DNA of 64,000 nucleotides from Escherichia coli (GTDB taxonomy: Bacteria; Pseudomonadota; Gammaproteobacteria; Enterobacterales; Enterobacteriaceae), in assembly GCF_003334405.1 (NCBI RefSeq), contig NZ_QOWM01000005.1; one strand, 5' to 3'. Positions 1 through 24,552 of this stretch are shown here, piece by piece. Both the position numbers and the translations under genes were made by a program. Each line of letters starts with the position of its first letter. Positions within the stretch are counted from its first letter, which is position 1. Below the pieces are notes generated by a model, which was given only the letters and a program-made list of their open reading frames with translations, was not told the origin of the DNA and did not search any database.

Positions 1-1155
1 TAATTTTAAAATTAATTCACCGGCATCAGGCGAATGTATCAGCGTAGCTAAATGTGAACCACACTTGCAAGAATTGAAGTTGCTGTCCACTTTAAATTTA
101 AAGCGTCCGTTAGCAACCTCAGCATATCGGTAATTTTCATTCTCACTTTTCTCTTTTAGTTCGATCCTGAATTCATTATTGATATTTTCTAAGCAATATA
201 AGAATTTTTCTATCTCATATTCGTTAGTTTCAATCCAAAGAGCAATTGCAAAACCCTTTAAGGTAGATAAATGCTTATCCGATAAGATTTTAGACAGCTC
301 AATGAAAAAATCATGATGATCACAAGTCATAGCATCGAACTCGCCCTCAAGATAATCGGCATCCACGCCTAATTTTGCAGCATAAGCCTGAATGTTATTT
401 TTTATACACTCTATAACTTCTGCTTCTGGTGGTAAATTATTTTCTGAGGGTAGGAAAACATTTTTAATACAATCTGAATTTATTCCTCTGCTTTTAACTT
501 GATCGGCATCGTAAACAGATACTATGTTCAGGCCAGAGCTATCTTTATAATGCTCAGATACTTTTTGTATATTAGATTCACCTTGTAGATTATGTAAGTA
601 ACATGTAGAGTAAAGATGTGTGTTTTTTATTTTTAAGATATATTCAAGTACAAGTTTTGCAAAGTCATCCTCTATCAGGAAAATATTTTTCCTTTCAGGA
701 GCTAAACCCAGTGCATTGAAATATCTATAATTATATCCACAATTTGATATGGTATATTTTTTGCCTTTTTTAGCTAAGACTAATACTGAGTTTAAGCCTT
801 GAGGGCTGAGTATGTGTTCAGAGTGAGTAGCCATCAAAACATTTAATTTTTTAGTATCGATTGTGTAGGCTAAAAAATCCATGAAATTTTTCTGGCTTAC
901 CGGGCAAATAAAACTCTCTGGCTCTTCAATGAAGAGGATTGAATTTTTTTCCGTATAAATAAGTTTCCAGATTGCTATAAGTAACTTATGTTCTCCTTGC
1001 CCCATACTCTCTGACGTATAAACTATATTACTGTTAACCTCTTTAACCTCAAAGTATGGGAAAGTTAAATCATCAATAATTCCTTCTACCTCATTAACTT
1101 TTACATACTCATATTTCTTGCCTGTGATTTTCTGAACAAAAAAAAAGATTTTCAT
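1..1155 (-). CDS. Distal part of an OLD/ABC-type ATPase-nuclease (Walker B, H-loop, Toprim-like motifs); 3' end lies beyond the window start
   Basis: Minus-strand frame from ATG at 1155..1153 stays open to position 1 (absent from the ORF track, translated by hand: MKIFFFVQKITGKKYEYV...). Walker B-like ILFIEEPE (~917..940), H-loop-like LMATHSEH, then NIFLIEDDF (~663..690) and VYDAD (~500..517) resembling Toprim E and DxD motifs. Confidence 0.5.
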   Translation of the reverse strand, partial: MKIFFFVQKITGKKYEYVKVNEVEGIIDDLTFPYFEVKEVNSNIVYTSESMGQGEHKLLIAIWKLIYTEKNSILFIEEPESFICPVSQKNFMDFLAYTIDTKKLNVLMATHSEHILSPQGLNSVLVLAKKGKKYTISNCGYNYRYFNALGLAPERKNIFLIEDDFAKLVLEYILKIKNTHLYSTCYLHNLQGESNIQKVSEHYKDSSGLNIVSVYDADQVKSRGINSDCIKNVFLPSENNLPPEAEVIECIKNNIQAYAAKLGVDADYLEGEFDAMTCDHHDFFIELSKILSDKHLSTLKGFAIALWIETNEYEIEKFLYCLENINNEFRIELKEKSENENYRYAEVANGRFKFKVDSNFNSCKCGSHLATLIHSPDAGELILKL

Positions 1156-1603
1156 TTAGCAAATGATAAGAATTTGATGTATTGAACCATCCATTTTTGT
1201 TTGGCGATGTGTTTATTTCGTTTATGATTTTTAATGCCATTGATGAAGCATCAAAATATTCAACATTTCTTAGTCCATCACCCAAAGACGAAGTGAAAGT
1301 TTGTTTCTCTCCATTAATTATTATATCAATGGAGATATTATCAATATCAGAAGAGCTAAAAATCCCAACATTACATATATCTTTCGACAGTATACCATAG
1401 ATAAGTTTCAATAACGACGTTTTACCAATGCCATTTCTTCCACATATAGAGGTTAAAGCTGAGTTTATCGTAATATCAGCATCTTCAAAGAGTGGTACAT
1501 TCTTAATGGATAAACTACATATTTTAATATTAAACTTTTTCCTGTTTGCCACATGATTCCAATAATCAGCTAATTTTGCCATTTTAATTGTTTCTATTGA
1601 CAT
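1109..1603 (-). CDS. N-terminal fragment of the same P-loop ATPase (Walker A), in a different frame from the downstream part
   Basis: 164-aa ORF with Walker A ICGRNGIGKTSLL (~1418..1444); stop at 1111..1109 lies 47 nt inside the 1..1155 frame; the overlap contains an A9/T9 run at 1138..1146. Confidence 0.55.
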   Translation of the reverse strand: MSIETIKMAKLADYWNHVANRKKFNIKICSLSIKNVPLFEDADITINSALTSICGRNGIGKTSLLKLIYGILSKDICNVGIFSSSDIDNISIDIIINGEKQTFTSSLGDGLRNVEYFDASSMALKIINEINTSPNKNGWFNTSNSYHLLNENLFFCSENHRQEI

Positions 1604-2799
1604 GTAGTTACCCCCGCTAAAACAGAATCTGCATAATTGTTGACGACGCTTATCAGATTCTTTTCATTTTCATGATAAAGTGCTCTATGCGCAGTTTTTA
1701 GATTATTTTTTTTCATCGTATTGAACACATCTGCTTTACTGGGGTCACTCTTCAAGAAAAATAGAGATATTATAAAGTCTCTGATGAGTAAGGAAGTACC
1801 AGTCATTACTCTTGATACAGCCCTAAAATTAAATTCTTCCAATAACTCCTTTACTTCATCTTTATTTTCACAATAAAACAATCCATCCAACACTCCCTCT
1901 TCTCTGAAAACGAATCTACCACTTTCAAAGCGGTAAAAGAAATCACTAAGGCTATCGTCTAAATTATAATTCGATTTTAAAATGGTTGAAAAAAAATAAA
2001 GCCATGAAGTTAAAGTGGCTTTTGTTATATGAACCTTACTTTCTTCACTATCAATCTTTTTCTTTGCCTTACTTAATATTAAAATGGATTTTTTTACTAG
2101 TTCTATGATTGAATTATCAAAAGGCTCATCTTCACGAGCCCTGTCGTTTAATTGCTTTTCTGTATAAGAAGCAATCAATGAATCCTTCTCAAGCATGTAG
2201 CAAAGTTTAATGAAAAGATCATGGTATGCCATCCTTTGATTACTAAAGCCTAGAAAGTGCTTGTCAAGCCCACAATCCGACATATAATCTACGAGAGATT
2301 TTATCTGGTTTCTTAAATCGCCAACATAAGCATTTCTCTTTTCTGCTGAAGTTAATTTAAGAGATTCATTCAATCTGTTGAATAGTTCACCGGGCTCTCC
2401 CTGATTGTATTCAACAATCTCAAATACTCGAATGGCATACCGTTCAAATCTGTTTTTTATTCTTTGAGGTAATTTATCAAAAGTTAATCCATCTAATTCT
2501 TTGATATCATCATCAATAGGTTCAATTAATCCATTTATTTTGAATTTATTATACATGAAATCTCTTATGGCACTTAATCGTTGCTGTCCATCGAGAACTT
2601 CTTGAATATAGGAATCTTCATTTAAAATAACATGGACAGGTGGAACCTGCCACCCTCTTAGAATAGTATCGATTAAAAGTTTTTTCTTCGGAAGTTGCCA
2701 GACTTCCGCCCTCTGGAAATCGGGTTGGAGATCTAGACTTCCTTCATGAATCCTAGAAAATATAGTCCTCAAATCTGGATCTGTAGTATTTATTTTCAT
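1594..2799 (-). CDS. DUF262 (ParB/Srx-like, GmrS N-terminal type) domain protein; no DUF1524/HNH partner domain apparent
   Basis: 401-aa ORF with LQPDFQR...VW and LDGQQRLSAI motifs (~2580..2603) near the N-terminus; start overlaps the upstream gene stop (ATGA at 2796..2799); AT-rich. Confidence 0.7.
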   Translation of the reverse strand: MKINTTDPDLRTIFSRIHEGSLDLQPDFQRAEVWQLPKKKLLIDTILRGWQVPPVHVILNEDSYIQEVLDGQQRLSAIRDFMYNKFKINGLIEPIDDDIKELDGLTFDKLPQRIKNRFERYAIRVFEIVEYNQGEPGELFNRLNESLKLTSAEKRNAYVGDLRNQIKSLVDYMSDCGLDKHFLGFSNQRMAYHDLFIKLCYMLEKDSLIASYTEKQLNDRAREDEPFDNSIIELVKKSILILSKAKKKIDSEESKVHITKATLTSWLYFFSTILKSNYNLDDSLSDFFYRFESGRFVFREEGVLDGLFYCENKDEVKELLEEFNFRAVSRVMTGTSLLIRDFIISLFFLKSDPSKADVFNTMKKNNLKTAHRALYHENEKNLISVVNNYADSVLAGVTTCQ

Positions 2800-5700
2800 T
2801 TCATTAACTCCCAGAATGCTTTATCACGCATTTTCCTAACTTTTTTATTTCCATCTATATACAGGCTAAAATGCTTCTCAAGTTGTCGTATCTGGCCCAT
2901 TAAAGACTCCTGCTCACTTTTATCGTCAATGTTAAATACCGCCTTAATGTCCGAATTCCTAATCTCAGAAACTCGATGAATTACCCAAGTGAGAATATAA
3001 GAAGCATAATTATTCTCGCCTGTTTTAAAGTGAGTAATTTCTTGTGTTGATAGAATCGCCCCTACACCATATTCACGGCCTTCTTTAAGGATTTTACGCA
3101 AGCTGGCAAAATCCTGGCGCATAAAGTTATCGGCTTCATCAACCAGAATCATTTTGGTTAACTGGCGATAATCACCTCGCACCGTCGGTTTCCCACGCTT
3201 TTGCATCTGCGCATAAAAAAGATCCAGTGTCAGTGCAACTACCAGGTTTTGAATCTCTGATGGATAACCAGCGAGTTCGATAACTGTGACTCCATCAACC
3301 AGATCGTACAAACTGGTCATCTTCTCTGGATCCGTTTCAAAAATCTGGAAACCAGCCAGATTATAAAGTGCAGCATATAATGAATCTTCGTCGACCTTCT
3401 CTTGTGCCAGGTACTGCTGCCACACATCTTCAATAGTCGGTGCTACACGATTCCATGTTGATCGATCATGAGGCACTATTCCTGCTAAGTCATAGCACTC
3501 CATTATTAACGTAACCAGCTTCATGCGTTGTTTTACGCCAAGGTTATACGCTTTGCCCATCGTTTCAGCGAATGCCATGGCCGTATGCCTCGGTAACATG
3601 GGCATATCACCAAATAACGATAACGGATTGTAAGGTAACAACGATAGCTGATACCTCTTAGCTCCCGTAGCTTCAAGAAACGCATCATCCACATAGTCGG
3701 ATTTATAGTCGAAGATCAACAAGCCAATCGGTTTACCGTCAACGTTGTAGGACTGATTGCGCATCAGTTGCGTAACCAGCGATTTAGTAAACTGGGTTTT
3801 CCCGGTGCCCATTGTTCCAATAATGCCGGTATTAGTATTCATGAACTTAGCGGTGTTGGTTGGTTCCCAGTACAATGGATTCTGACGCACAGCATCATGA
3901 CCAAACAAGATCTGTAATGGTGTATTGCGGACATTACTGGGGGTTAGTGCCGATGCTTCAGGTTGTGGAAGCTCCAGCGCAGAAATGGGCGGCGGCTCAG
4001 TTGTTGTTGCTACCTGTACTGGGTGTGAAGAATTGACATCACACTCTGGTTTGAGCAGATATTTTTCCGGCACCCGATAGCGTTCAGCTAGTGGAGGTTG
4101 ATCACCTTGTGCTGCAATTAACGATGGAAGCAATGAATAGGGGATTTCGATCTGTAGAATATTCTCTGCCGTTTCTTTATAAGAGAGATCAAAACAGGTT
4201 CCGCTGTCTACATGAGCTACCACAAAGCCTTCTGCATAATCAGCAAGCTCACCTAACTGATAGTCGCCAGTGAGCCACCATTCACGTCGTTCCAGCAGAG
4301 GGGATAGCTTGTCGTTATCCAGTACACCATACAGACGCAACTTCTCTACCTGCATTAATACTTGGCGGATAAAAAGTGCCCGGTATAGTTGTGATGCTAG
4401 AGTTTTCGGCCCAAGAATATCTTGCTGTAAATAGCGTTTTAGCTCGCGGGCCTGCTGCCCCGCATGGTTGTAATCGGGGCGAGCTCCTGTTTTTACTTCA
4501 AGTGGTAACAGATACAGGTTGTTATCTTTGAAACCGACAAAGAGCACATCGTCAGAGATCGCTCCTTTCTGATAACCCTGTAAATGGCGCGATAAATCGC
4601 TTTCTTTCATTCTCAGCCCGACGTTGCCGGACACGCGGATCATCTCAGCTACTGACAGTGGAATCCAGCAAATATCTGACTGGAGCAGCATAGACTGTAC
4701 GAATTTGTATGCACCGATAATGCCGTGTTTTTCTTTGCGCTCCTTTTCATTTGAACGCAACATTTTTAACAGCCACTCACCGTTAAAGGCATTAAATTCA
4801 GCAAGTAGTTGCTGGCTATCAACGGTGGATTGTCCTGTTTGAAGGAGACGCAGGAACAACTCAACCTGTTTTGTGACAGTTACGGCGTCATAACCAGCAC
4901 AACTGGTGTACTGGTCAGAGTAATGAATTAGTACGACATCTTTTTGACTAGTAAAGAAATCGAGTGTGACCTTAGGGTCGATAATTGTGGTCCAGAGAGA
5001 GCTATCATAAGAGCGATTCAGCAGTTGCTTAAAGTTACCGCTCACAGCCAGACTAATTCCCTGACCGTGATACTGGCTGTTGCTCTGCCGTGCCGGTTGC
5101 CACAGACAGCCTAACAAGCGGGCGAGACGCAGGGCGCAAGACGATTCAGTATCGACATTACGCAGACCAAACGCGGTAAAGTAAGCATCGCCTTGTGTTT
5201 CAGCCCCTTCGCCTGCAATCAAGCCATGACATAAAACCCCGCTGGCAGCATCCTCAATGCGAATTTGGCGGCAATCAACCGGTGCGGTGTTGGTGAAAAA
5301 TGCGAGATGGGCGTAAGCCAGTTGATCGCTTTCCGGTGGCAGGATAAATTTGCTGAATGTTAAGCGACTGCGAAGCAGATCGATCAACATATCGGCTTCA
5401 GAACGCCACGCACCGCTGTTCAGACCAAGATCATTTTTAAGTTGTTCATAGCTGCCGCTTTCGGCAAAGCGGTCAAAGGCATTGGGTAGCAGACGTTCGT
5501 CATAGCAGTTTACGTGTATCGAAATTGCGTTATCTTTTTCCTGCTTAAAATAATCTACCAGTCCCAGGAATAGCTCTCTGGCTTCTCCCATATTAATAGC
5601 ATTAATAACCAGGGCATTATTTCCTGCACTCTGGAACAGCCGAGAATAGGCATCTGTAAATTCGTTTAGCTTGTCTTTCACCAGACGCTTAACATATTCG

Positions 5701-7880
5701 TGGCTCATCTGGCGCTGGGGAACAATATCTATCCAGAAGCGGTTTTCTACCATCGGTTGTAACTGTGCGTATTCATGTTCGCTATGATACACAAATGGCA
5801 TTAGGCCAGAGACGACCAGACGATCTAGAGTAATCTCTGGTAATGAAGCGAAGGAAGCTGATGTGGGGTATCCGGGCTCGGCGATAATAGTTTCAGCTAG
5901 CTGTAAATGATAAGCCATTACCAATGGGTGCAGAGGCGAGAGACGTTCATAATCGTCGCCGCGGCAAATCCCCAGATGTAACAGACGTTTTTCCTGGATG
6001 GTTAATGCTCTGCTTAGACTGATTTGCTGTAATGCCTGTTCAAAAGTAGCGATCATGTGACTGACTAATACACGATATTCTGCTGACCATGACACCAGAC
6101 TCGGCAGGGTATTTCGACGTTGATAGTAAACGAACAATTGGTGGTACGCATTATGGAGGTCGGGATAGCTCGCCAGAAGCTCATCCAGTGCAAACTCACT
6201 ACCATTACTGCCAGTGCTGAGCAGATTACGCTCGATCAGGGCGTACTCTTGCATAAGCAACTGCTGGCGAACACCAACCACATTATGTTCGATATTGTCC
6301 AGGATGACGCGACCTTTCAACTTGTTCCAGGTTGCATTCCCTTCTTCTTTAAAGAGTTTATTGAAACGACCCTGATCAAAAAGCAGAGGCAGTGTTAATC
6401 CTTCCTCTGCTCCTGGACCTTCGATGTTAAACAGTAAACGGGAGTCACCTGAAATCAAGGTAAATTTGATCAGCTCACTTTGATTCGCCAGCGTTTCAAA
6501 ATTAACGAGTGCATAATGGCGGCAATCAACATCATCACTTTCTTCATCAAGTAAACAGGTCTTGTCGCCGAACTCTGCAATACGTAACTCATTATCTTCC
6601 AGTTGCAGAGTTAATTGACCTTTACCAGGTTCAATACGATAACAATGCTGGATTTCATTAAGCCAGAATTGCCCTTGTTCAACTAACAGCAGGCGAAACT
6701 TGTACTCTTCTGCTGAGTTATTGCGGTTAATGATTTCGAGGCTAAAGAAGCAGGGCCGACCATCAAAAGGCACTGATGCCAGTATCTTAGAGTTTCTCCC
6801 CCCGAGCCGGCTAGTACGCCAGAATCGTTCTTTCTGTAACGGACGATGATGAGCAATTTTTACCTGATTGTCCTGAAGGTCGTTACCCTGGAAGATAAAC
6901 TCCAGCTCAACTTGTGACTGCCCCGGTAGAACCTGAACCAGGACACTGATATCTCGTTTACCTGCTTTACTGGTGCTTTTGGCTCTTTGCCAGACCTCAC
7001 CGTTTTCAGCAGTAATGTTTTCCAACACCAGTTTCTGTTCACTGTTTTGTGCTTTTTCATTCAGGTAGACGGAGAAATCAAGCTCACGCCAATCGTCATT
7101 GTCAACGAAATGCTCCTGAATGAATTTTGCACTAAATTCAGTTAGTACATTCTCCAGTTGCCCGCTGTAGCGTTCAACACTGTCCTCTATCTGGCGATAT
7201 AACTTTTGGTTTTCATTGAGCCGGGCGCGCAACTGCTTATCACTAAAATTCAGCAGGTTATTATCGTTGAATAACTTTAGCTCTGAGAAATCCAGATTGC
7301 CGTCGTCCAGCAGACGGTATAACGATGAAAATCCAAAAACCGTAGCGCCTTCATCCAATATTGTTGTCAACTGATCGCCCAGCAAACAGCGGGATACTTG
7401 AGAACGGGCGCTGTCCGTTGTGATTAACTTTTCGAGCTGGTGACGGAAGGTTTCTGGATGCCAGATAGCATCCGGTGCAGCGACATCTTTGGTACTATTG
7501 AGTAAGGTATCCAGCATGCTGTTGTGGATAATCAACAACGCTGTCTGGGCAAAAATGCCATTGCGGCCAGAAACCTGATCGCGTAAATGAGAAATATAGT
7601 TTTCTGTGAATGCAGGGGTAGTGGTGCCGTGCAGTACCGGAATAAGCTGGATATTATTACATTGGACGTAGGTAAGAAATTGCTCCGGTGCAATTTCTAG
7701 TTTATTTCCATTTGCTAAAGAGTCGAAAGCCTTCCAGAGCTTTAAGGCGTTATCCGGATCGGGAGATTTAAACTGGTAGCGCTCACCAGGCTGGATGATG
7801 CTGCTAACCCATTCAATGAAGGTTTCTGCCAGATAGGTTTCATACTGTTTTACGGACATATACGGCGTCTCCACTGTCAC
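2796..7880 (-). CDS. Large (1694 aa) island protein with C-terminal HerA/FtsK-type P-loop ATPase; possibly DptH/DndH-like
   Basis: Walker A GTMGTGKT (~3795..3818), Walker B ILVDEAD (~3129..3143), then REYGVGAILSTQ (~3028..3080) resembling the HerA/FtsK arginine-finger and TQ motif. Candidate PD-(D/E)xK motif VLFVGFKD...LPLEVK (~4491..4540). Start could instead be the Met at 7859. Confidence 0.65.
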   Translation of the reverse strand: MTVETPYMSVKQYETYLAETFIEWVSSIIQPGERYQFKSPDPDNALKLWKAFDSLANGNKLEIAPEQFLTYVQCNNIQLIPVLHGTTTPAFTENYISHLRDQVSGRNGIFAQTALLIIHNSMLDTLLNSTKDVAAPDAIWHPETFRHQLEKLITTDSARSQVSRCLLGDQLTTILDEGATVFGFSSLYRLLDDGNLDFSELKLFNDNNLLNFSDKQLRARLNENQKLYRQIEDSVERYSGQLENVLTEFSAKFIQEHFVDNDDWRELDFSVYLNEKAQNSEQKLVLENITAENGEVWQRAKSTSKAGKRDISVLVQVLPGQSQVELEFIFQGNDLQDNQVKIAHHRPLQKERFWRTSRLGGRNSKILASVPFDGRPCFFSLEIINRNNSAEEYKFRLLLVEQGQFWLNEIQHCYRIEPGKGQLTLQLEDNELRIAEFGDKTCLLDEESDDVDCRHYALVNFETLANQSELIKFTLISGDSRLLFNIEGPGAEEGLTLPLLFDQGRFNKLFKEEGNATWNKLKGRVILDNIEHNVVGVRQQLLMQEYALIERNLLSTGSNGSEFALDELLASYPDLHNAYHQLFVYYQRRNTLPSLVSWSAEYRVLVSHMIATFEQALQQISLSRALTIQEKRLLHLGICRGDDYERLSPLHPLVMAYHLQLAETIIAEPGYPTSASFASLPEITLDRLVVSGLMPFVYHSEHEYAQLQPMVENRFWIDIVPQRQMSHEYVKRLVKDKLNEFTDAYSRLFQSAGNNALVINAINMGEARELFLGLVDYFKQEKDNAISIHVNCYDERLLPNAFDRFAESGSYEQLKNDLGLNSGAWRSEADMLIDLLRSRLTFSKFILPPESDQLAYAHLAFFTNTAPVDCRQIRIEDAASGVLCHGLIAGEGAETQGDAYFTAFGLRNVDTESSCALRLARLLGCLWQPARQSNSQYHGQGISLAVSGNFKQLLNRSYDSSLWTTIIDPKVTLDFFTSQKDVVLIHYSDQYTSCAGYDAVTVTKQVELFLRLLQTGQSTVDSQQLLAEFNAFNGEWLLKMLRSNEKERKEKHGIIGAYKFVQSMLLQSDICWIPLSVAEMIRVSGNVGLRMKESDLSRHLQGYQKGAISDDVLFVGFKDNNLYLLPLEVKTGARPDYNHAGQQARELKRYLQQDILGPKTLASQLYRALFIRQVLMQVEKLRLYGVLDNDKLSPLLERREWWLTGDYQLGELADYAEGFVVAHVDSGTCFDLSYKETAENILQIEIPYSLLPSLIAAQGDQPPLAERYRVPEKYLLKPECDVNSSHPVQVATTTEPPPISALELPQPEASALTPSNVRNTPLQILFGHDAVRQNPLYWEPTNTAKFMNTNTGIIGTMGTGKTQFTKSLVTQLMRNQSYNVDGKPIGLLIFDYKSDYVDDAFLEATGAKRYQLSLLPYNPLSLFGDMPMLPRHTAMAFAETMGKAYNLGVKQRMKLVTLIMECYDLAGIVPHDRSTWNRVAPTIEDVWQQYLAQEKVDEDSLYAALYNLAGFQIFETDPEKMTSLYDLVDGVTVIELAGYPSEIQNLVVALTLDLFYAQMQKRGKPTVRGDYRQLTKMILVDEADNFMRQDFASLRKILKEGREYGVGAILSTQEITHFKTGENNYASYILTWVIHRVSEIRNSDIKAVFNIDDKSEQESLMGQIRQLEKHFSLYIDGNKKVRKMRDKAFWELMK

Positions 7881-9165
7881 TCATTCTCTCCACATTTCCC
7901 ATGCGTTCATAAAACGCAACCAGCATTTGTGTAGACTGGTTATCCAGATAAAATCCGCGTTGCTCAAAACCACGTAGCAGCTCATGCAGACGGAGTTTTT
8001 TGTTTTTACCCACGGTAAGGTTAGTTAGTAGCAGTAGTCGATCCTGGTTCAGTACCAGCACTTTCCCCGCTCGGCCACGAACCTGAATGAAGTCAGTGCA
8101 AATCTGGCTTTCCAGCTCGTTGATGTATTTGCGATTTACCGCTGCTCGCTCGGTTTTCTTACCCTGAAACTGTTCAACGGCAACAGATAACAGCTGTTTA
8201 AAGGCATCTTCCAGGTTTGTAGCACGATCGCGTTCAGGAAGGTCTCGCTCCTCCTTACTAATGAACTTCTGTATATAATTATTGAGTTCATTTAGTACTC
8301 GATTCGATGTATCTGAATAACCTAAGCAATCTTGATATACCTGCCAAAGAGGGCGCTTTTCCTCACCTTTTACTTGTAATACCTCTAATGCAGAGAGTAC
8401 GGGGAATAATTTTTCACTTTGGCGGGCAAACCACTTATAGCCGAAGAGCTTTATTTTATCTCGTTCGGAGCTAGCTTTTTCAGTATCGAGGATAAAGAAC
8501 AATGATTTACTCTGCGGCTCGCCGTCTTGCCAGTTGTCCAGATTGAGCGCCAGTTGTGCGCACCAACTAAAGGCATACAAACGTAGAGTATTGGTCAGCT
8601 CCTGCAAAAGATATTGTGGGTGCTCTGCCAGAAACGCCAAATCAGACTGAAAACACGTTACCAGATAGGGTAAATAAGGTTGTTCTTTTGCAAATGGCCC
8701 CTCACCCAGTCGGATTAATTTTTTATTGAGCTTATTCAGCATCTCTTTTTCAATAAAATTCAACTTATCTTGTATCGGGTTATTAAGGCTAAAATCTCTC
8801 ATCAAATTGGCAAACAGTGTTCCAAGGCGTTTGTCGGCAGTCGAGCCTGCACTTATCTTTTCACCATCAAACTGAGCGTGGAACAGCAAGAACAGCGGGG
8901 AGACACGAAAAATATCCTGACTGGAAAAATACATCCGTTCCAGCACGGACAAGAACGCAGGTTCATCGATCAATATTTGCAGATGAGTTTTACAATCCTC
9001 GCGAAACTGCTCGAGACTGTATGTATCGATTTTATACTTCACGGCATAGCTCAGTACTAAACCTGTGACGATTTGCCAGTCAATATTGTTATTCTTATTA
9101 CGTATTGGAAGGTAGCTATCCAGCTGGTTATTACTAACTTTTAAATTTGTTGCAATGGGATACAT
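7840..9165 (-). CDS. 441-aa island protein with no recognisable motif; possibly DptG/DndG-like
   Basis: ORF sits 4 nt downstream of the 549-aa gene and overlaps the 1694-aa gene start by 41 nt; AT-rich codon usage. Confidence 0.6.
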   Translation of the reverse strand: MYPIATNLKVSNNQLDSYLPIRNKNNNIDWQIVTGLVLSYAVKYKIDTYSLEQFREDCKTHLQILIDEPAFLSVLERMYFSSQDIFRVSPLFLLFHAQFDGEKISAGSTADKRLGTLFANLMRDFSLNNPIQDKLNFIEKEMLNKLNKKLIRLGEGPFAKEQPYLPYLVTCFQSDLAFLAEHPQYLLQELTNTLRLYAFSWCAQLALNLDNWQDGEPQSKSLFFILDTEKASSERDKIKLFGYKWFARQSEKLFPVLSALEVLQVKGEEKRPLWQVYQDCLGYSDTSNRVLNELNNYIQKFISKEERDLPERDRATNLEDAFKQLLSVAVEQFQGKKTERAAVNRKYINELESQICTDFIQVRGRAGKVLVLNQDRLLLLTNLTVGKNKKLRLHELLRGFEQRGFYLDNQSTQMLVAFYERMGNVERMSDSGDAVYVRKTV

Positions 9166-9169
9166 GATG

Positions 9170-10819
9170 TTATCCCTCCATGCCGCTGATAGTAATCATG
9201 TCATCGTCCGCTCTTGCACTATAGACCCGCTTTAGGCCATCATAAAACTTGATTTCGCTGCTGGATTTTGCCTTTTCTGCGATTAGTTCAACGATTTCGT
9301 CCAGTAAGACAATCGCACTTTTATCATACTTATTAGGGCGATAGCCATTATTTAGTTTGCTCAATAGCTCAAATAAATTAAGACCGATCCGAATCGGATC
9401 TAGCGGATCTTGTCCTACTTTTAAATAGATATCGAAACAAGTTGTATGGGCTGTATTTTTCTTGAGAATTGAATCCCAGTCCGGTTTCAGCGCAACAGGT
9501 GCTGTGATTTTAATCCCACCAAATTCGCCTAAAAAGAACTCTTCTTTTTGGGTACTCAGTTCAGGTGCTTTACGGTTTGCGTAACGCTGAATACCAGCGA
9601 TAAGCTCGAAAGAGTAAAAGCGGTTTAGTGTTCTTTTTTGTTCCGGATCTGCGGTATAGTTTTTATGCAGATGCCAAATCTCTGAATAACGCTCAAAGAG
9701 CGCTTCTTTAAAGAATACAGAGAACCTTTTGTGATAGTTATTCCCTAAAGATTCATGTTGTAGTAGCCAGAAAAGTCTAATTAATGAAGCTGCGTCACCA
9801 GGCTTAACACATTGACGATCAAACGTAAGATGTAATTTCGCAAGTGTACTCAGAAAATCATCCAGTTCGGGATCAACTAATCCAAGCTCATAGCGCAAAA
9901 TAAATTGATCAATCTCGTATGTATGCAATCTGGCAGGATCAAAATCAGAAACCTTTTTAATTAGATCATTCTCTGCACCATTAAACAGATTATCAAACAG
10001 GTACCCAGGCCCTGTCAGCAGGTGGTGTAAAAAATCCAATAAGGTTCTTGTGGTAACAAATTGATCTTTTATTAATCGGGCTTTAAATAGCTGTGTTATT
10101 AAAACATTCTGAACACCGGGCATGCACAGTAGTTTAAAGTTAGCAACGGTTTTTAAATCATGTCCTATTGATTCATCACGTTGATAAATTGTGTAAAACA
10201 GGTTTTTGTCGTCATTCCCCGTTAATTGATTCATTAATTTTTTGATAAAAGGGGAGTATTCCCGCTCTTCGTCAAACTCGAACTTTGGATAATGTTCGAA
10301 ATCAAAAAATATACAATTTTCGTTGCGGTAAGGACGCTGGCCTTCCTGTTGCGCTGACAAGAATGAGTCAATAGCAGCACGGATAGCCATATGGGACTCA
10401 GAACCTTCTCTGGCAAAATTGGCTAGCATCCCGGTGTTGATACCGATGAGGAGCGGGTATGATTGCGAATGATGATTTTCAAATAAATCATTCAGTGCAT
10501 CGATAGCCGATTGTTGAGGCGCAAAGCTATGTGTCGCATCCAGATGGAAACTAAACTTCTGTTGATATTGTGGATCTGACTTACAGCGGGTTAAAATTTC
10601 GGATTTCCCGTCTCCACTACTTCCGCATAGAAAAATGATCTCACCGGGAGTAGCTGTATCCAGATAACGCTGTAACTCTTCTTCAATCTCTTGTTTAACA
10701 AAGAGTTGTTCTTTTAGCTCATCGAACACATCCTTTTGCCGATGAGTTTCTGTGGTTACGGAAAACGAAGATGACTTCGCAAGTACACCTAACGCTTTAC
10801 GTAATGTGATCGCGCTCAT
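9170..10819 (-). CDS. 549-aa P-loop NTPase, first gene of the island operon; possibly DptF/DndF-like
   Basis: N-terminal P-loop FLCGSSGDGKSE (~10597..10630); first ORF downstream of the 209-bp gap after the integrase. Confidence 0.6.
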   Translation of the reverse strand: MSAITLRKALGVLAKSSSFSVTTETHRQKDVFDELKEQLFVKQEIEEELQRYLDTATPGEIIFLCGSSGDGKSEILTRCKSDPQYQQKFSFHLDATHSFAPQQSAIDALNDLFENHHSQSYPLLIGINTGMLANFAREGSESHMAIRAAIDSFLSAQQEGQRPYRNENCIFFDFEHYPKFEFDEEREYSPFIKKLMNQLTGNDDKNLFYTIYQRDESIGHDLKTVANFKLLCMPGVQNVLITQLFKARLIKDQFVTTRTLLDFLHHLLTGPGYLFDNLFNGAENDLIKKVSDFDPARLHTYEIDQFILRYELGLVDPELDDFLSTLAKLHLTFDRQCVKPGDAASLIRLFWLLQHESLGNNYHKRFSVFFKEALFERYSEIWHLHKNYTADPEQKRTLNRFYSFELIAGIQRYANRKAPELSTQKEEFFLGEFGGIKITAPVALKPDWDSILKKNTAHTTCFDIYLKVGQDPLDPIRIGLNLFELLSKLNNGYRPNKYDKSAIVLLDEIVELIAEKAKSSSEIKFYDGLKRVYSARADDDMITISGMEG

Positions 10820-11028
10820 AACTTCATGTTCTCTAAAGAAAGAATATCCTTATTCTATACAAGCTAACAATTGAGCACCATATGCCTTTTTCTCCAGGTA
10901 CGTTCAATACTCTGCAGAACTACCTGAAACCAATGCGCGGACAGCTACCATCATGAAATTGTTGCAACTTTGACCAACGAGCCTACTTAACAAAGTGTGA
11001 CGGTAGGCTCTATTTTTGTTACACAGCT
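10820..11028 (-). promoter_or_regulatory. Intergenic region between integrase 3' end and first operon gene; likely holds the operon promoter
   Basis: 209-bp non-coding AT-rich gap; I did not identify a convincing -35/-10 pair or a terminator hairpin. Confidence 0.3.
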
Positions 11029-12297
11029 TTAGCGCTTTAACGACGCAAAAATTTTGGCAAAATCAAACGGGCTAATCACTTTCTCGCGATTTACATCTAG
11101 AAAATCCGCCCACCACTGCAACATCAATCTTCTCTCATCCAAATGTTCTGCCTTATGGATATAAGCCGCTCGAACGGAGTTACGTTCCATATGGCTCATC
11201 TGACGCTCTACCGCATCCCTCGACCACAGCCCTGACTCAATCAGCGAGCTACATGCCATAGTCCTGAAACCATGCCCACAAACCTCTACCCTAGTGTCAT
11301 AACCCATAACGCGCAGCGCCTTGTTCACCGTGTTTTCACTCATCGGTTTACGCGGATCATGATCGCCAATGAAAACAAAATCGCGCTCGCCACTAAGCTT
11401 GTGAACCTGTTTGAGGATTGCCAGAGCCTGATGAGACAATGGCACCAGATGAGGTGTGCGCATTTTAGAACCACGTTGAGAGTGCTTCACTCCTTCGATA
11501 GCTTCTCGTTCTGCCGGTATCGTCCACATTGCCGTATCGAAATCGATCTCAGACCAGCGGGCAAAGCGCAATTCACTGGAACGAATGAAGATTAATAAGG
11601 TTAGCTCAACAGCCAGGCGGGTCAAAGGGCGTCCCGTGTAACCGTCAATTCGGTGGAGCAGTTCAGGTAGACGTTTCAGCTCAAGTGCAGGGCGATGGAC
11701 ACGGTTACTGGAAGCAACTGCGCCAGCCATCTCTTGAGCCGGGTTGTAATCAATCAGCCCACTTTGTACCGCATAGCGCATGATTGCTGTGGTTCTCTGC
11801 TGAAGGCGAGAAGCAACTTCAAAGCGGCCTGTCGCTTCCACGATTTTTATGGGTGCAAGCAGGTCACGAGTTTTTAGCTCTTCGATACTTCGTCTGCCAA
11901 TTGCCGAGAACAAATTGTCCTCTAAGCTCTTCAATACCCTTCGGCTGTGTTCTTCGGACCATTTCTTATTAGTAGCGTGCCATTCTCTGGCAACTGACTC
12001 GAAGGTAATAGCCTCTTTCGCCTGTTCTTCTTTCACAGCACGTTTATGCTCGCGAGGGTCGATTCCAGCAGCAACAAGTCTCCTAGCCTCTTCTCTTTTT
12101 TGACGGGCATCAGCCAGTGAAGTTTCAGGGTAAACACCGAAAGCCATCAGGTGTTGCTTGCCACCGAAGCGAAAGCGGAACCGCCAGTATTTTGAGCCGT
12201 TGGGATGAATCAGCAAAAACATGCCATCCCCATCGACTAGGGTGTACTCCTTTTCCTGCGGTTTCGCAGAACGTACTTTAGTATCTGTCAGAGCCAT
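11029..12297 (-). CDS. intB: P4-type tyrosine integrase (IntB-like), apparently intact
   Basis: 422-aa ORF next to a tRNA 3' end; the C-terminal region (around ...EVCGHGFRTMACSSLIESGLWSRDAVERQMSHMERNSVRAAYIHKAEH) has tyrosine-recombinase-like R/H..R/Y spacing; position matches P4-like tRNA-associated integrases. Confidence 0.85.
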   Translation of the reverse strand: MALTDTKVRSAKPQEKEYTLVDGDGMFLLIHPNGSKYWRFRFRFGGKQHLMAFGVYPETSLADARQKREEARRLVAAGIDPREHKRAVKEEQAKEAITFESVAREWHATNKKWSEEHSRRVLKSLEDNLFSAIGRRSIEELKTRDLLAPIKIVEATGRFEVASRLQQRTTAIMRYAVQSGLIDYNPAQEMAGAVASSNRVHRPALELKRLPELLHRIDGYTGRPLTRLAVELTLLIFIRSSELRFARWSEIDFDTAMWTIPAEREAIEGVKHSQRGSKMRTPHLVPLSHQALAILKQVHKLSGERDFVFIGDHDPRKPMSENTVNKALRVMGYDTRVEVCGHGFRTMACSSLIESGLWSRDAVERQMSHMERNSVRAAYIHKAEHLDERRLMLQWWADFLDVNREKVISPFDFAKIFASLKR

Positions 12298-12496
12298 AAA
12301 AGTTCTCCTTCCATGTGCCGCTGTGAGTATACAACCATTATCGAACCAGCATATATACTCGGTTCTATACTCACAAGCGACTTGATGTGGGTTGACTCAG
12401 ATTGACTTCTGTTGAAAGGAAAATCGCGGAAGGCCTTGTATGACGGGGATTTCAGGCATAAAAAAAGACCTCAGTTGAGGTCCATTTACATGCTTT

Positions 12497-12581
12497 TGGT
12501 GCCGAAGGCCGGACTCGAACCGGCACGTATTTCTACGGTTGATTTTGAATCAACTGCGTCTACCGATTTCGCCACTTCGGC
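12497..12581 (-). tRNA. leuX: tRNA-Leu (leuX)
   Basis: Plus strand reads TGGTGCCGAAGGCCGGACTCGAACCGGCACG...GCCACTTCGGC, the reverse complement of an 85-nt tRNA-Leu with CCA end at the low coordinate facing the integrase. Confidence 0.9.
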
Positions 12582-12776
12582 ACTGAAGAGGTATGCGGAA
12601 AACGTTGTGAATTATACCTGTCACGCACCACCATGCAAGCGCCAGCTTGCTCGCACCTCGCTAAGTGCTGAAATTTTCAGCATTGCATACCGCGATGTGT
12701 AACCTTTGTCACACTCCAGGCACCCCGCCCTGCCATGCTCTACACTTCCCAGACAACACCAGAGAAGGACCAAAAA

Positions 12777-13796
12777 ATGTCGATGATAAAAAGCTATGCC
12801 GCAAAAGAAGCGGGCGGCGAACTGGAAGTTTATGAGTACGATCCCGGTGAGCTGAAGCCACAAGATATTGAAGTGCAGGTGGATTACTGCGGGATCTGCC
12901 ATTCCGATCTGTCGATGATCGATAACGAATGGGGATTTTCACAGTATCCGCTGGTTGCCGGGCATGAGGTGATTGGGCGCGTGGTGGCACTCGGGAGCGC
13001 CGCGCAGGATAAAGGTTTGCAGGTCGGTCAGCGTGTCGGGATTGGCTGGACGGCGCGTAGCTGTGGTCACTGCGACGCCTGTATTAGCGGTAATCAGATC
13101 AACTGCGAGCAAGGTGCGGTGCCGACGATTATGAATCGCGGTGGCTTTGCCGAGAAGTTGCGTGCGGACTGGCAATGGGTGATTCCACTGCCAGAAAATA
13201 TTGATATCGAGTCCGCCGGGCCGCTGTTGTGCGGCGGTATCACGGTCTTTAAACCACTATTGATGCACCATATCACTGCTACCAGCCGCGTTGGGGTAAT
13301 TGGTATTGGCGGGCTGGGGCATATCGCTATAAAACTTCTGCACGCAATGGGATGCGAGGTGACAGCCTTTAGTTCAAATCCGGCGAAAGAGCAGGAAGTA
13401 CTGGCGATGGGTGCCGATAAAGTGGTGAATAGCCGCGATCCGCAGGCACTGAAAACTCTGGCGGGGCAGTTTGATCTCATTATCAATACTGTGAACGTCA
13501 GCCTCGACTGGCAGCCTTATTTTGAGGCGCTGACGTATGGCGGTAATTTCCATACGGTCGGTGCGGTTCTCACGCCGCTGTCTGTTCCGGCCTTTACGTT
13601 AATTGCGGGCGATCGCAGTGTCTCTGGCTCTGCTACTGGCACGCCTTATGAGTTGCGTAAGCTGATGCGTTTTGCCGCCCGCAGCAAGGTTGCGCCGACT
13701 ACCGAATTGTTCCCGATGTCGAAAATTAACGACGCCATCCAGCATGTGCGCGACGGTAAGGCGCGTTACCGCGTGGTGTTGAAAGCCGATTTTTGA
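12777..13796 (+). CDS. ahr: NADPH-dependent aldehyde reductase (zinc alcohol dehydrogenase family)
   Basis: [19 protein letters not shown]... with CGICHSDL zinc motif; start taken at internal Met of the 353-aa ORF. Confidence 0.9.
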
Positions 13797-13799
13797 AAA

Positions 13800-14363
13800 T
13801 CATTCGCAGCGCTGATCTGAGGCGCTGCCCTCTTTCGCACATATTCTGTTTTGTCGTATCGCCAGCACAGCCTGCCGACATTGTTCAGTGACATTGGCAA
13901 TATCATGGTTGATATCAATGCGCACAATATCCTGTTCATCTTCTTGTGGACGCTCCAGTGCCTCAAACTGACTTTTTAGTAACGCTACCGGCATAAAATG
14001 CCCAGCCCGACGCTGCATTCGCGCGAGAATAGTTTCATAGTCGCCATCTAACCAGAGGAAATGAACATGGGGGCTACCCTTGCGTAAAATATCACGATAC
14101 TGTTTTTTTAATGATGAACAGACAATAAATCCTGTTTCATTCTTTTTATAAAGACTGTATGAAGCATCATTTAAGCGTTCCAGCCAGGGAAGTCGATCTT
14201 CATCAGATAATGGAATACCCTGCGACATTTTATCTATATTTTTGGCTGGATGAAGATCGTCACCATCAATAAATTTAGCAGATAATAACGCGGCAACCTT
14301 GCTACCAATTAATGTTTTACCACTCCCTGAAACGCCCATCAAAATAAAGCTTTCACCCGCCAT
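13800..14363 (-). CDS. idnK: D-gluconate kinase, thermosensitive
   Basis: 187-aa ORF with P-loop GVSGSGKT; sits in the idn gene cluster. Confidence 0.9.
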   Translation of the reverse strand: MAGESFILMGVSGSGKTLIGSKVAALLSAKFIDGDDLHPAKNIDKMSQGIPLSDEDRLPWLERLNDASYSLYKKNETGFIVCSSLKKQYRDILRKGSPHVHFLWLDGDYETILARMQRRAGHFMPVALLKSQFEALERPQEDEQDIVRIDINHDIANVTEQCRQAVLAIRQNRICAKEGSASDQRCE

Positions 14364-14579
14364 TTAAAATCTCCTGAATCATCTTACCTGCTGCGATACT
14401 ACGCCTGGTGGCATAATAATTTCACGTTTTTTTATTTCTGCTGATAAGAATTACAAGGCACATCACGTTATGCGTAACATAGTAATGTAACAATTTTCTG
14501 ACGTGATCTTCATCACAAATAATAACAATTAAAACCGCTTAAATGCTTCCGAGGTGTCTACCTGACCAGTGAGGAATTT
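14364..14579. promoter_or_regulatory. Divergent idnK / idnDOTR promoter region
   Basis: 216-bp AT-rich gap between divergently oriented idnK and idnD; assigned by position only. Confidence 0.4.
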
Positions 14580-15611
14580 ATGCAAGTGAAAACACAGTCC
14601 TGCGTTGTTGCGGGCAAGAAAACTGTTGCCGTTACCGAGCAGACGATAGATTGGAATAATAATGGAACATTAGTACAAATAACCCGAGGTGGAATTTGCG
14701 GTTCCGATTTACATTATTATCAGGAAGGAAAAGTAGGTAATTTCATGATAAAGGCACCGATGGTGTTAGGTCATGAAGTTATCGGTAAAGTTATTCATAG
14801 CGACTCATCAGAATTACATGAAGGGCAAACGGTAGCCATTAATCCGTCTAAACCGTGCGGTCACTGCAAATACTGCATTGAACATAACGAGAATCAGTGT
14901 ACAGATATGCGTTTTTTTGGCAGTGCCATGTATTTCCCTCATGTTGATGGTGGTTTTACCCGTTATAAAATGGTCGAAACGTCGCAATGTGTCCCTTATC
15001 CGGCCAAAGCTGACGAAAAGGTTATGGCTTTTGCCGAACCTTTAGCCGTCGCGATTCATGCCGCACATCAGGCCGGCGAGTTACAGGGCAAGCGAGTATT
15101 TATTTCTGGTGTTGGGCCCATTGGCTGCCTGATTGTCAGTGCTGTGAAAACACTGGGGGCCGCGGAAATTGTCTGTGCCGATGTGAGTCCCCGTTCCCTT
15201 TCGCTGGGTAAAGAGATGGGGGCGGATGTGCTCGTAAACCCACAAAACGACGACATGGATCACTGGAAAGCGGAAAAAGGCTATTTCGATGTCAGCTTTG
15301 AAGTGTCCGGTCATCCTTCATCAGTGAATACCTGTCTGGAGGTCACTCGTGCACGCGGCGTAATGGTGCAGGTAGGTATGGGAGGCGCGATGGCAGAATT
15401 CCCAATGATGACATTGATTGGTAAGGAGATTTCACTCAAAGGCTCTTTCCGTTTTACCAGCGAATTTAATACCGCAGTGTCATGGCTGGCGAATGGCGTT
15501 ATCAATCCACTGCCTTTACTGAGTGCTGAATATCCCTTCACTGACCTGGAAGAGGCGCTACGTTTCGCCGGTGATAAAACCCAGGCAGCAAAAGTCCAGC
15601 TTGTTTTCTAA
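14580..15611 (+). CDS. idnD: L-idonate 5-dehydrogenase
   Basis: 343-aa zinc-type dehydrogenase (GICGSDLHYY) at the idn locus. Confidence 0.9.
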   Translation: MQVKTQSCVVAGKKTVAVTEQTIDWNNNGTLVQITRGGICGSDLHYYQEGKVGNFMIKAPMVLGHEVIGKVIHSDSSELHEGQTVAINPSKPCGHCKYCIEHNENQCTDMRFFGSAMYFPHVDGGFTRYKMVETSQCVPYPAKADEKVMAFAEPLAVAIHAAHQAGELQGKRVFISGVGPIGCLIVSAVKTLGAAEIVCADVSPRSLSLGKEMGADVLVNPQNDDMDHWKAEKGYFDVSFEVSGHPSSVNTCLEVTRARGVMVQVGMGGAMAEFPMMTLIGKEISLKGSFRFTSEFNTAVSWLANGVINPLPLLSAEYPFTDLEEALRFAGDKTQAAKVQLVF

Positions 15612-15634
15612 GAGATAAATAAAGGAATAATACA

Positions 15635-16399
15635 ATGAACGATCTATTTTCACTGGCAGGAAAAAATATCTTGATTACCGGTTCAGCACAGGGCATTGGC
15701 TTTTTACTGGCAACCGGCCTGGGTAAATATGGCGCACAAATAATTATTAATGATATTACTGCCGAACGCGCAGAACTTGCTGTAGAAAAACTCCACCAGG
15801 AGGGTATTCAGGCCGTTGCCGCACCTTTTAATGTTACTCATAAACATGAAATTGATGCCGCCGTTGAACATATCGAAAAGGACATCGGCCCCATTGATGT
15901 GCTGGTGAATAACGCCGGTATCCAGCGCCGTCATCCTTTTACTGAGTTCCCTGAACAAGAGTGGAATGATGTGATCGCAGTAAACCAGACCGCCGTGTTC
16001 CTGGTATCGCAAGCAGTAACTCGTCACATGGTTGAACGCAAGGCAGGTAAAGTTATTAATATTTGCTCGATGCAAAGCGAACTGGGACGTGACACCATCA
16101 CCCCTTATGCCGCATCGAAAGGGGCGGTAAAAATGCTCACCCGCGGCATGTGCGTCGAGCTGGCGCGCCACAATATTCAGGTCAACGGTATTGCGCCGGG
16201 CTATTTCAAAACAGAAATGACTAAAGCACTGGTTGAGGACGAAGCCTTCACCGCCTGGTTGTGCAAACGGACCCCCGCCGCACGCTGGGGAGATCCGCAG
16301 GAACTGATTGGTGCTGCGGTGTTCCTTTCTTCAAAAGCCTCTGATTTCGTAAACGGCCACCTGTTGTTTGTTGATGGCGGCATGTTAGTGGCTGTTTAA
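15635..16399 (+). CDS. idnO: 5-keto-D-gluconate 5-reductase (SDR family)
   Basis: 254-aa ORF with TGSAQGIG Rossmann motif at the idn locus. Confidence 0.9.
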   Translation: MNDLFSLAGKNILITGSAQGIGFLLATGLGKYGAQIIINDITAERAELAVEKLHQEGIQAVAAPFNVTHKHEIDAAVEHIEKDIGPIDVLVNNAGIQRRHPFTEFPEQEWNDVIAVNQTAVFLVSQAVTRHMVERKAGKVINICSMQSELGRDTITPYAASKGAVKMLTRGMCVELARHNIQVNGIAPGYFKTEMTKALVEDEAFTAWLCKRTPAARWGDPQELIGAAVFLSSKASDFVNGHLLFVDGGMLVAV

Positions 16400-16463
16400 C
16401 ACCTACTACCCTACGTGCAGCGCGAAAGCGCTGCTTTTCTGGCACTAATAAGAGATAAAGACT

Positions 16464-17783: not shown

Positions 17784-17849
17784 AAGAATAAAATATTGTG
17801 ATGTAGTTTCGGGGGAAGATTGAAGATTCCCCCGACGTTGGGAGAAGTT

Positions 17850-18848
17850 ATGCGCAATCACAGAATTTCTTTACAGGATATCGCTACGCTGGCTGGCGTA
17901 ACAAAAATGACCGTGAGTCGTTATATCCGCTCGCCGAAAAAGGTGGCAAAGGAAACAGGCGAGCGCATCGCCAAAATTATGGAAGAGATCAATTATATCC
18001 CTAATCGCGCTCCCGGCATGTTGTTGAATGCACAAAGTTATACCCTCGGTATCTTGATTCCGTCATTTCAAAATCAACTCTTCGCTGACATTCTCGCGGG
18101 AATAGAATCCGTCACCTCTGAGCATAATTATCAGACCCTTATTGCTAATTACAATTACGATCGCGATTCCGAAGAAGAGTCGGTGATTAACCTGCTCTCT
18201 TATAACATTGACGGGATTATACTTTCGGAAAAATATCACACCATCAGGACGGTGAAATTTCTGCGTTCAGCCACCATTCCGGTCGTGGAATTGATGGATG
18301 TACAGGGAGAACGGCTGGATATGGAGGTCGGTTTTGATAATCGGCAGGCCGCTTTTGACATGGTGTGTACCATGCTGGAGAAGCGAGTCAGGCACAAAAT
18401 TCTGTATCTCGGTTCCAAAGATGACACCCGCGATGAACAGCGTTATCAGGGGTATTGCGATGCGATGATGCTGCATAATCTTTCCCCATTACGCATGAAT
18501 CCACGCGCCATCTCATCCATTCATTTAGGAATGCAGTTAATGCGTGATGCCCTTAGCGCAAACCCGGATTTAGACGGTGTATTTTGCACCAATGACGATA
18601 TTGCGATGGGTGCGCTTCTGCTGTGCCGCGAGCGAAACCTCGCCGTGCCAGAACAAATTTCCATTGCGGGTTTTCATGGGCTGGAGATTGGCAGGCAAAT
18701 GATCCCAAGCCTCGCCAGCGTAATTACTCCCCGTTTTGATATTGGTCGGATGGCCGCCCAAATGTTGCTGAGCAAAATTAAAAATAACGATCACAACCAC
18801 AACACTGTTGACCTCGGGTATCAGATTTATCACGGCAACACGCTTTAG
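17850..18848 (+). CDS. idnR: LacI-family regulator of idonate catabolism
   Basis: N-terminal [24 protein letters not shown]; start taken at the internal Met (MRNHRISLQ). Confidence 0.88.
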
Positions 18849-18925
18849 GTTATTTTCTCTTCATTACACGTATTCTCTTTGCCGGACGTTGCCTATACTC
18901 CAGGCAGGAAACTGGAGGATATCTC

Positions 18926-20580: not shown

Positions 20581-20588
20581 TCATCAGG

Positions 20589-23034: not shown

Positions 23035-24549
<1,515 letters not shown>

Positions 24550-24552
24550 TTG

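Follow-up and report, generated by a model that had tools for sequence, protein, structure and literature searches.

The DNA analyzed here, a 64,000-nt stretch of Escherichia coli contig NZ_QOWM01000005.1 (hereafter the window), carries at positions 1-10819 five closely packed minus-strand genes, next to an integrase and a tRNA-Leu gene (Table 1). Judged by profile and structural matches, the first three are almost certainly dptF, dptG and dptH, which together make up the restriction side of the phosphorothioate (PT) system Dnd. They are followed by a pair of genes, 4 and 5, coding for a DUF262-only protein and an OLD-like ABC ATPase-Toprim nuclease, and it is this pair and its relation to the Dnd system that form the main subject of this report.

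An earlier note on this DNA, made from the sequence alone, had proposed profile searches of the five proteins; run with PADLOC and NCBIfam, these identify genes 1-3 as DndF, DndG and DndH. The three PADLOC profiles match end to end (E=3e-235 for DndF, E=8e-193 for DndG, and 2832 bits for DndH), and each NCBIfam model scores above its cut-off (TIGR03238, 439 bits vs 50 for DptF; TIGR03236, 301 bits vs 20 for DptG; TIGR03237, 1211 bits vs 621 for DptH). DptG is near-identical over residues 1-441 to DptG in PDB entry 7EXX (E=1e-296), as are residues 1320-1694 of DptH to the DptH C-terminal domain in 7ES4 (E=4e-253), and the RefSeq name of the gene 1 orthologue in E. coli B7A is dptF. In gene order and coupling, genes 1-3 do not differ from the DptFGH (DndFGH) system known from B7A and Salmonella Cerro 87, and their proteins are essentially those of B7A. 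According to the literature, DndFGH, which ranks among the most thoroughly studied PT restriction complexes, forms a DndF:G:H 2:2:1 complex (PMC10470545, PMC11662687) which translocates on DNA and nicks DNA devoid of PT at GAAC/GTTC, its ATPase being restrained by PT on host DNA; genes 4 and 5 are not among the components of the described complex. DptG also matches the mad7 component of the methylation-associated defence system MADS in PADLOC (E=3e-171), and the ATPase domain of DptH matches mad8 (E=4e-15), indicating that DndFGH and MADS apparently have components in common.

The island is 99.98% identical to that of the model strain E. coli B7A, for which structures of DptG and DptH have been determined, with 3 differing positions in 12.6 kb, while the core genome to its right differs from B7A by ~1%; the island was therefore shared horizontally between B7A and the strain of the window. 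Within window positions 14500-30700, single-nucleotide polymorphisms relative to B7A are densest at 18950-20600, in yjgR, and the island, to the left of ~14.5 kb, is spared. Taken together, this suggests that the island has spread horizontally and that recombination has acted locally at yjgR, a core gene which is itself annotated with a HerA-like helicase C-terminal domain. In B7A, the dndBCDE genes are convergent to the operon and start 82 nt beyond gene 5, just to the left of the region equivalent to the window, and the arrangement, with the same distance of 82 nt, recurs in strains ZYS9073 and EC416, whose islands are >=99.9% identical to this one. The window itself ends before dndBCDE, as its left edge cuts the island, leaving the last 9 nt of gene 5 (two codons and the stop) to the left of position 1.

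All four junctions between the five genes were re-found as open reading frame (ORF) geometry, just as the earlier note had described them. A gap of 4 nt (9166-9169) separates dptF from dptG; the overlap of dptG and dptH amounts to 41 nt (7840-7880) when dptH is read as the longest ORF, from a GTG, and to 20 nt when it is read from the RefSeq start, 7859, so that DptH is 1694 aa long from the GTG at 7880 and 1687 aa from 7859. The stop of dptH and the start of gene 4, which is preceded by a GGGAG Shine-Dalgarno sequence, have a common ATGA at 2796-2799, and genes 4 and 5 overlap by 10 nt (1594-1603). The view that we are dealing with an anti-phage operon on a leuX-integrase island, tightly coupled and probably transcribed as a unit, holds. 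The same five-gene order is kept in Yersinia, Aeromonas, Vibrio, Shewanella and Pseudoalteromonas. A promoter and terminator scan yielded fewer promoter-like sites than shuffled sequence and no convincing internal terminator, and has no bearing on operon structure.

The remaining observations of the earlier note fared as follows. The tRNA-associated integrase is present next to the operon, and the AT-rich composition is evident from a GC content of 31-34% over genes 4-5 and 40-48% over dptFGH, vs ~50% in the flanking core genome. Its domain guesses were sound for a P-loop protein (gene 1), a HerA/FtsK-type ATPase (gene 3), a DUF262 protein (gene 4) and an OLD-type protein with a Toprim domain (gene 5). 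Of the five ORFs, genes 1-4 stand as that note gave them, but gene 5 is not intact, since it contains a run of nine A residues in place of eight and is cut by the window edge. A repeat search over positions 1-14000 gave short chance matches only, and no att repeat was found within the window because the left end of the island lies outside it.

Table 1. Coordinates of the operon, the homopolymer and the island boundary in the window
Feature	Position	Strand	Description
dptF (dndF)	9170..10819	-	549 aa; P-loop component of the PT-dependent restriction complex, encoded first in the operon
dptG (dndG)	7840..9165	-	441 aa; profile and PDB matches
dptH (dndH)	2796..7880	-	C-terminal HerA/FtsK-type ATPase domain
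Gene 4, DUF262-only protein	1594..2799	-	401 aa; N-terminal ParB/GmrSD_N NTPase
Gene 5, 5' part (OLD-like ABC-ATPase-Toprim nuclease)	1109..1603	-	residues 1-155, then 9 out-of-frame codons and a stop
Gene 5, 3' part	1..1146	-	residues 153-534, in a shifted frame
A9 homopolymer (coding strand T9)	1138..1146		shifts the reading frame of gene 5
Tyrosine integrase of the leuX island	11029..12297	-	ORF; NCBIfam PRK09692 integrase domain, E=2e-83; RefSeq annotation
tRNA-Leu(CAA), leuX	12497..12581	-	ARAGORN and Rfam tRNA; insertion site and right boundary of the island

Elsewhere in the window, Rfam matches to the Ysr276 antisense RNA, four naRNA4 (derived from repetitive extragenic palindromes) and a Mg2+ riboswitch (Magnesium-II), at 23596-23790, 24624-24795, 41645-41760, 51937-52014 and 58177-58255, are ordinary E. 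coli core features.

Architecture of genes 4 and 5

The gene 4 protein is matched by Pfam GmrSD_N (E=5e-20) and carries the motif DGQQR at residues 70-74, which is invariant (D70-G-Q-Q-R74) across our alignment of the DUF262 family. It contains no DUF1524/HNH domain and has no Pfam match beyond residue 159, and its C-terminal half is all-helical in the AlphaFold2 (AF2) model. Its closest PADLOC relative is NsnA of the Menshen system (E=3e-33), with residues 2-279 aligning to profile positions 45-331 of 385, and it received no family assignment in PADLOC v2 or NCBIfam.

Gene 5 codes for an AAA_15/OLD-type ABC ATPase with a Toprim domain fused to it; its intact orthologue in B7A, WP_000021429, is 536 aa long and annotated as "ATP-dependent nuclease". 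Across 19 aligned family members, the invariant positions are the Walker A motif G55xNGxGK61, E227/E229 of Walker B, H260, and the Toprim residues E311 and D365xD367. The AF2 model (predicted local distance difference test score, pLDDT, 88) has as its top Foldseek matches the OLD nuclease 6p74 from Thermus (E=7e-11), GajA and PtuA, with E values of about 1e-10 for 6p74 and GajA; at the level of fold, the matches of the two pair proteins lie with OLD/GajA and BrxU/SspE. These matches and the invariant residues favor catalytic competence of the pair. The closest PADLOC family of gene 5 is HEC-04 (E=2e-27), and the protein scores far below every PADLOC v2 and NCBIfam cut-off. The Dnd-linked ABC-Toprim proteins have an extra beta-rich C-terminal extension of ~55 aa (residues ~478-534; window 1-176), which is absent from most stand-alone relatives and may be a nucleic-acid-binding add-on. 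A relative from Marinobacter (locus L016) has a different C-terminal extension with the sequence FDRGFGFV, presumably resembling a cold-shock-domain motif.

In the window the reading frame of gene 5 is shifted by the A9 run, so that the 5' ORF contains 155 native and 9 out-of-frame residues, and the translation of the 3' ORF matches B7A from residue 153/154. This divides the catalytic residues between two frames, with Walker A in the 5' part and the others in the 3' part. Of the 13 complete E. coli genomes which have the island, 12, including B7A, have A8 and an intact 536-aa gene 5; the remaining one, EC416, has A7 at the homopolymer, and A9 was found in none. The A9 run could be a real inactivation or a long-read homopolymer error, and, viewed together with A7 in EC416, it represents either slippage at random or errors of sequencing. 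We considered phase variation at this run and rejected it, as the position of the T8 tract is not kept in orthologues and genes of 30-33% GC are full of such runs. If the sequence is accurate, the pair would be inactive in this window. For the window itself the outcome is mostly a correction, in which three genes turn out to be a known system and the fifth is interrupted.

Distribution of the pair and of dptFGH

Of the complete E. coli genomes, 5426 in number, 209 have dptH, and genes 4-5 accompany it in only 13, the other 196 being without the pair. The pair also occurs elsewhere without dptFGH, and we therefore view the locus as two modules rather than one machine, with genes 4-5 very probably constituting a separable accessory module. 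The proposal in the earlier note of an undescribed five-component system does not hold: genes 1-3 are the known DptFGH, and genes 4-5 can be separated from them. As to co-occurrence, which that note had suggested examining, the five-gene order is kept in other genera and the pair is missing from most E. coli genomes with dptH. The note had also allowed that the genes might prove to be a described system with mere passengers; a described system does account for three of them, but the pair does not behave as a random passenger, as it tracks dndBCDE phylogenetically.

What lies downstream of dptH differs between strains. Homology to the 95%-identical island of strain FORC_041 ends exactly at the dptH stop codon; between dptH and dndE, FORC_041 has instead a hypothetical gene and a DGQHR (DndB-like) gene (locus L096, 7305-8998). 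In SE11 the slot is occupied by a restriction endonuclease gene (L097, 8183-9004), the start of which overlaps the dptH stop. A ScoMcrA-type nuclease with a sulfur-binding domain and an HNH domain (SBD-HNH) is encoded downstream of dptH at L099 (8909-9778) and L100 (8968-9840); in Shewanella violacea and Pseudoalteromonas ruthenica, dptH is followed by an SBD-HNH gene and then by the pair. In Salmonella Cerro 87 the slot is taken by dndI, where it is co-transcribed with dndFGH and codes for a PT-sensing restriction factor working with DndBCDE (PMC11662687). The cargo often overlaps the dptH stop codon. As its identity differs from strain to strain, the slot serves as an exchange point for accessory nuclease modules, these remaining translationally coupled to dptH, and it looks like a recombination hotspot for accessory nucleases.

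Our figures for co-occurrence are based on about 35 loci. A genome-wide pattern scan contributed little to them, since the 600 matches listed were mostly generic DUF262 proteins, and close relatives from Gammaproteobacteria were absent among them. A DUF262-only gene and an ABC-Toprim gene are adjacent or, usually, overlapping in more than 25 loci, which come from Firmicutes, Alpha-, Beta- and Gammaproteobacteria, Bacteroidota and one archaeal metagenome-assembled genome. The ABC-Toprim gene directly follows the DUF262 gene in about 30 of the 35, the remainder being mostly contigs or ORFs cut at that point, and every family locus consists of two genes only, with no third gene. Judged by this gene order, the pair is a widespread and conserved two-gene unit.

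In a neighbor-joining tree, the Dnd-associated DUF262 proteins form one clade, which is gammaproteobacterial. In all 12 lineages sampled within it, dndBCDE adjoins the pair, and dptFGH is present in seven (E. coli, Yersinia similis, Aeromonas hydrophila, Vibrio parahaemolyticus, Shewanella violacea, Pseudoalteromonas ruthenica and a JGI metagenome contig). The other five, namely two variants of a Salmonella integrative and conjugative element (ICE), two Pseudomonas and Serratia fonticola, have no dptFGH within up to 10 kb on each side (3.5 kb on one side of locus L098), and the Salmonella ICEs offer no candidate nuclease next to dndBCDE other than the pair. The orientation of the pair relative to dndBCDE varies between convergent and co-directional, as does the mobile context, which may be a leuX island or an ICE. 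At 13 loci outside the clade, no dnd gene was found within 10 kb. The GC content of the pair is 29-33% in E. coli, Yersinia, Aeromonas, Vibrio, Salmonella, Shewanella and Pseudoalteromonas, and 41% in Pseudomonas sp. 8209. In Serratia fonticola, a second DndB-like (PF14072) gene is found directly upstream of the DUF262 gene (L103, 8783-9991), and the pair is separated from dndE by a PIN-domain gene, representing another ParB-superfamily arrangement around the pair.

The pair is also part of a published construct. The clone pWHU4387, published in mBio in 2023 as a construct with the complete B7A dndBCDEFGH cluster (PMC10470545), was assembled from two PCR products, the primers of which map to positions 12532, 20766-20811 and 29080 of the B7A locus (L001), with the inner primers spanning the dptH/DUF262 junction. 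From these positions it follows that the insert is contiguous (L001 12532-29080) and contains both extra genes intact; it corresponds to window positions 1-11081 plus DNA to the left of the window. The phenotypes published for this clone thus stem from an insert of nine genes, of which genes 4-5 are unmentioned in that paper. PT-dependent restriction by the B7A locus is known from the literature with a clone that also carries the pair (PMC10470545).

Related systems and possible role of the pair

Among the closest known systems is DndI of Salmonella enterica Cerro 87, which occupies the same slot downstream of dndH beside dndBCDE and has, like gene 4, a DUF262 NTPase with DGQQR. DndI combines this domain with a C-terminal DUF1524 HNH nickase in one polypeptide, whereas the gene 4 protein is nuclease-free and the nuclease is a separate ABC-ATPase-Toprim protein. 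DndI occurs with dndBCD, with or without dndFGH, much as the pair occurs with or without dptFGH. The other DUF262 enzymes, SspE, GmrSD and BrxU, have fused HNH nucleases and resemble gene 4 in sequence only at the level of Pfam GmrSD_N.

The Menshen system (NsnABC; Millman 2022; PMC12065111) resembles the pair in domain content, with the DUF262 domain and part of the helical C-terminal domain of NsnA matching gene 4, and an AAA_15/OLD-type ABC ATPase coming next in both; some of its NsnC effectors are Toprim nucleases. Menshen has three genes, while the pair has two, the ATPase being fused to Toprim and no NsnC/inPIN protein being present. Gene 5 matches NsnB at residues 188-266 only (E=3e-14), shows no DUF3696 in a Pfam scan, its C-terminus being the Toprim domain, and is followed in B7A by the convergent dndE 82 nt away and not by an nsnC. 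No PT link has been described for Menshen.

HEC-04, class 1 OLD nucleases and GajA have the same architecture as gene 5, an ABC ATPase followed by Toprim E...DxD; for HEC-04 and P2 Old a single gene suffices, and the partner of GajA is a UvrD-like helicase, whereas the gene 5 family is nearly always found with a DUF262 gene. HEC-04 is a validated single-gene ABC-Toprim defence, in which both the Walker A and the Toprim residues are required (bioRxiv 10.1101/2024.01.29.577857). Membership in PD-T4-2 was rejected, that system consisting of DUF262 and HEPN proteins (PMC10952713). The pair is described neither in the Aravind-lab survey of Dnd neighborhood nucleases (PMC10853773) nor in the Menshen survey or the EcoSal review, and full-text literature searches by protein accession and by DUF262 plus OLD/Toprim plus phosphorothioate returned no description of it. 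As far as established, it is probably an undescribed variant of the known DUF262-plus-nuclease defence logic, probably tied to PT modification.

We consider it fairly probable that the locus is a B7A-type Dnd restriction arm in which two modules are read as one operon and the pair is the second PT-linked restriction module; a functional tie of the pair to Dnd PT modification, suggested by its neighborhoods and phylogeny, appears to us about equally probable. According to this scenario, a generic sensor-nuclease cassette would have been captured once by a dnd island and then have co-evolved with dndBCDE as a PT-linked restriction arm. Its DUF262 protein, with a helical C-terminal half of the DNA-binding type, would scan DNA, its NTPase cycle responding to PT, and would gate the ABC-Toprim nuclease such that incoming DNA free of PT is nicked or cut and PT-marked host DNA is spared. 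The pair would then be a split functional analogue of DndI/SspE, with PT sensing and cleavage residing on separate proteins, and would provide a second restriction layer beside DptFGH, or the sole layer in elements without dptFGH.

The gating mechanism is proposed only tentatively, by analogy with three precedents. DndI, co-transcribed with dndFGH, senses PT through its DUF262 domain (PMC11662687), and in SspE the DUF262 NTPase responds to PT and controls the attached nuclease (PMC9646914); in OLD, GajA and HEC-04, the Toprim nuclease is governed by the ABC domain through its binding of ATP (PMC12065111; bioRxiv 10.1101/2024.01.29.577857); and in the Menshen model NsnA signals to NsnB and then to the effector (PMC12065111). 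DndBCDE alone gives no phage resistance (PMC11662687).

Several points weigh against a PT-linked role. The PT dependence rests on gene neighborhood and phylogeny in about 35 loci, defence islands cluster unrelated systems, and the Dnd clade could partly reflect co-transfer on shared mobile elements. Stand-alone relatives outside the clade are without dnd, and the family would therefore not be intrinsically PT-requiring. Among PDB chains, gene 4 has no sequence-level match to DndI, SspE or BrxU, the tyrosine patch with which DndI/SspE sense PT could not be placed on its sequence, and no alignment to DndI was obtained. In EC416, the DUF262 gene is split as well, leaving both genes of the pair broken; this, together with the frameshift in the window, could mean that the pair is dispensable or costly, or could stem from sequencing errors at AT-rich homopolymers.

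Competing explanations and significance

The main rival to the PT-linked reading is that the pair is a self-contained, PT-independent abortive-infection or nuclease system of the Menshen or HEC-04 kind embedded in the island, which shares the transcription and mobility of the island and is triggered by a phage cue; this cue could be a feature of phage DNA or an anti-restriction protein attacking DndFGH, with the pair acting as a guard. The 13 stand-alone loci without dnd, such as a Bacillus defence island with an MmeI-type restriction-modification system and a STAND NTPase, speak for this explanation, and the closest PADLOC families, NsnA and HEC-04, are both PT-independent. Defence genes embedded in other systems are well established (bioRxiv 10.1101/2024.01.29.577857), and phages are known to counter DndFGH (PMC12345140), which would make a backup useful. 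We nevertheless regard it as rather unlikely, since the dndBCDE link persists throughout the clade, in varied orientations and elements and without dptFGH, which exceeds what island clustering leads one to expect, and since dndBCDE of the Salmonella ICEs would be left with no restriction partner nearby. Alternatively, the pair could be a type IV module, in which the DUF262 protein recognizes foreign modified DNA (hydroxymethylcytosine (hmC), glucosyl-hmC or a foreign PT pattern) and, as in GmrSD/BrxU, directs the Toprim nuclease to it, complementing DptFGH, the target of which is unmodified DNA. Dnd neighborhoods do often contain modification-dependent nucleases, as exemplified by SBD-HNH in Shewanella and Pseudoalteromonas (PMC10853773), but where such an enzyme is already present the pair would be redundant, and this explanation offers no specific reason for the clade-wide link to dndBCDE, making it quite improbable.

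A single obligate machine composed of all five proteins, and thus a new system, is the least credible explanation, and we give it hardly any weight. Translational coupling at all four junctions and a five-gene order kept in at least six genera would agree with it. The comparative data largely refute it, as DndFGH is reported to be a 2:2:1 complex of DndF, DndG and DndH, the pair is missing from the great majority of E. coli genomes with dptH and is found without dptFGH, the Shewanella and Pseudoalteromonas loci have an SBD-HNH gene inserted after dptH and before the pair, and the two modules differ in GC content, with 0.32-0.33 for the pair and 0.40-0.45 for dptFGH.

Returning to the PT-linked reading in its full form, the pair may be a PT-coupled restriction effector and a further type of DndBCDE partner after DndFGH, DndI and the SBD-HNH enzymes, acting as the sole restriction arm on Salmonella ICEs and in Pseudomonas and Serratia, and as an unrecognized contributor to the published B7A phenotypes; this we hold possible, at a little short of an even call. 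The protection credited to B7A DndBCDE-FGH with pWHU4387 may thus include a contribution from genes 4-5. Dnd/PT defence is a model for the way in which a sparse and partial epigenetic mark separates self from non-self DNA, and each new restriction partner, be it DndFGH, SspE or DndI, has shown a different read-out logic. If the pair does read PT, it would exemplify how a generic two-gene sensor-nuclease cassette, which occurs on its own in many phyla, can be adapted to an epigenetic mark once a modification island has captured it, and would represent a natural split DndI/SspE, in which sensing and cutting would be biochemically separable.

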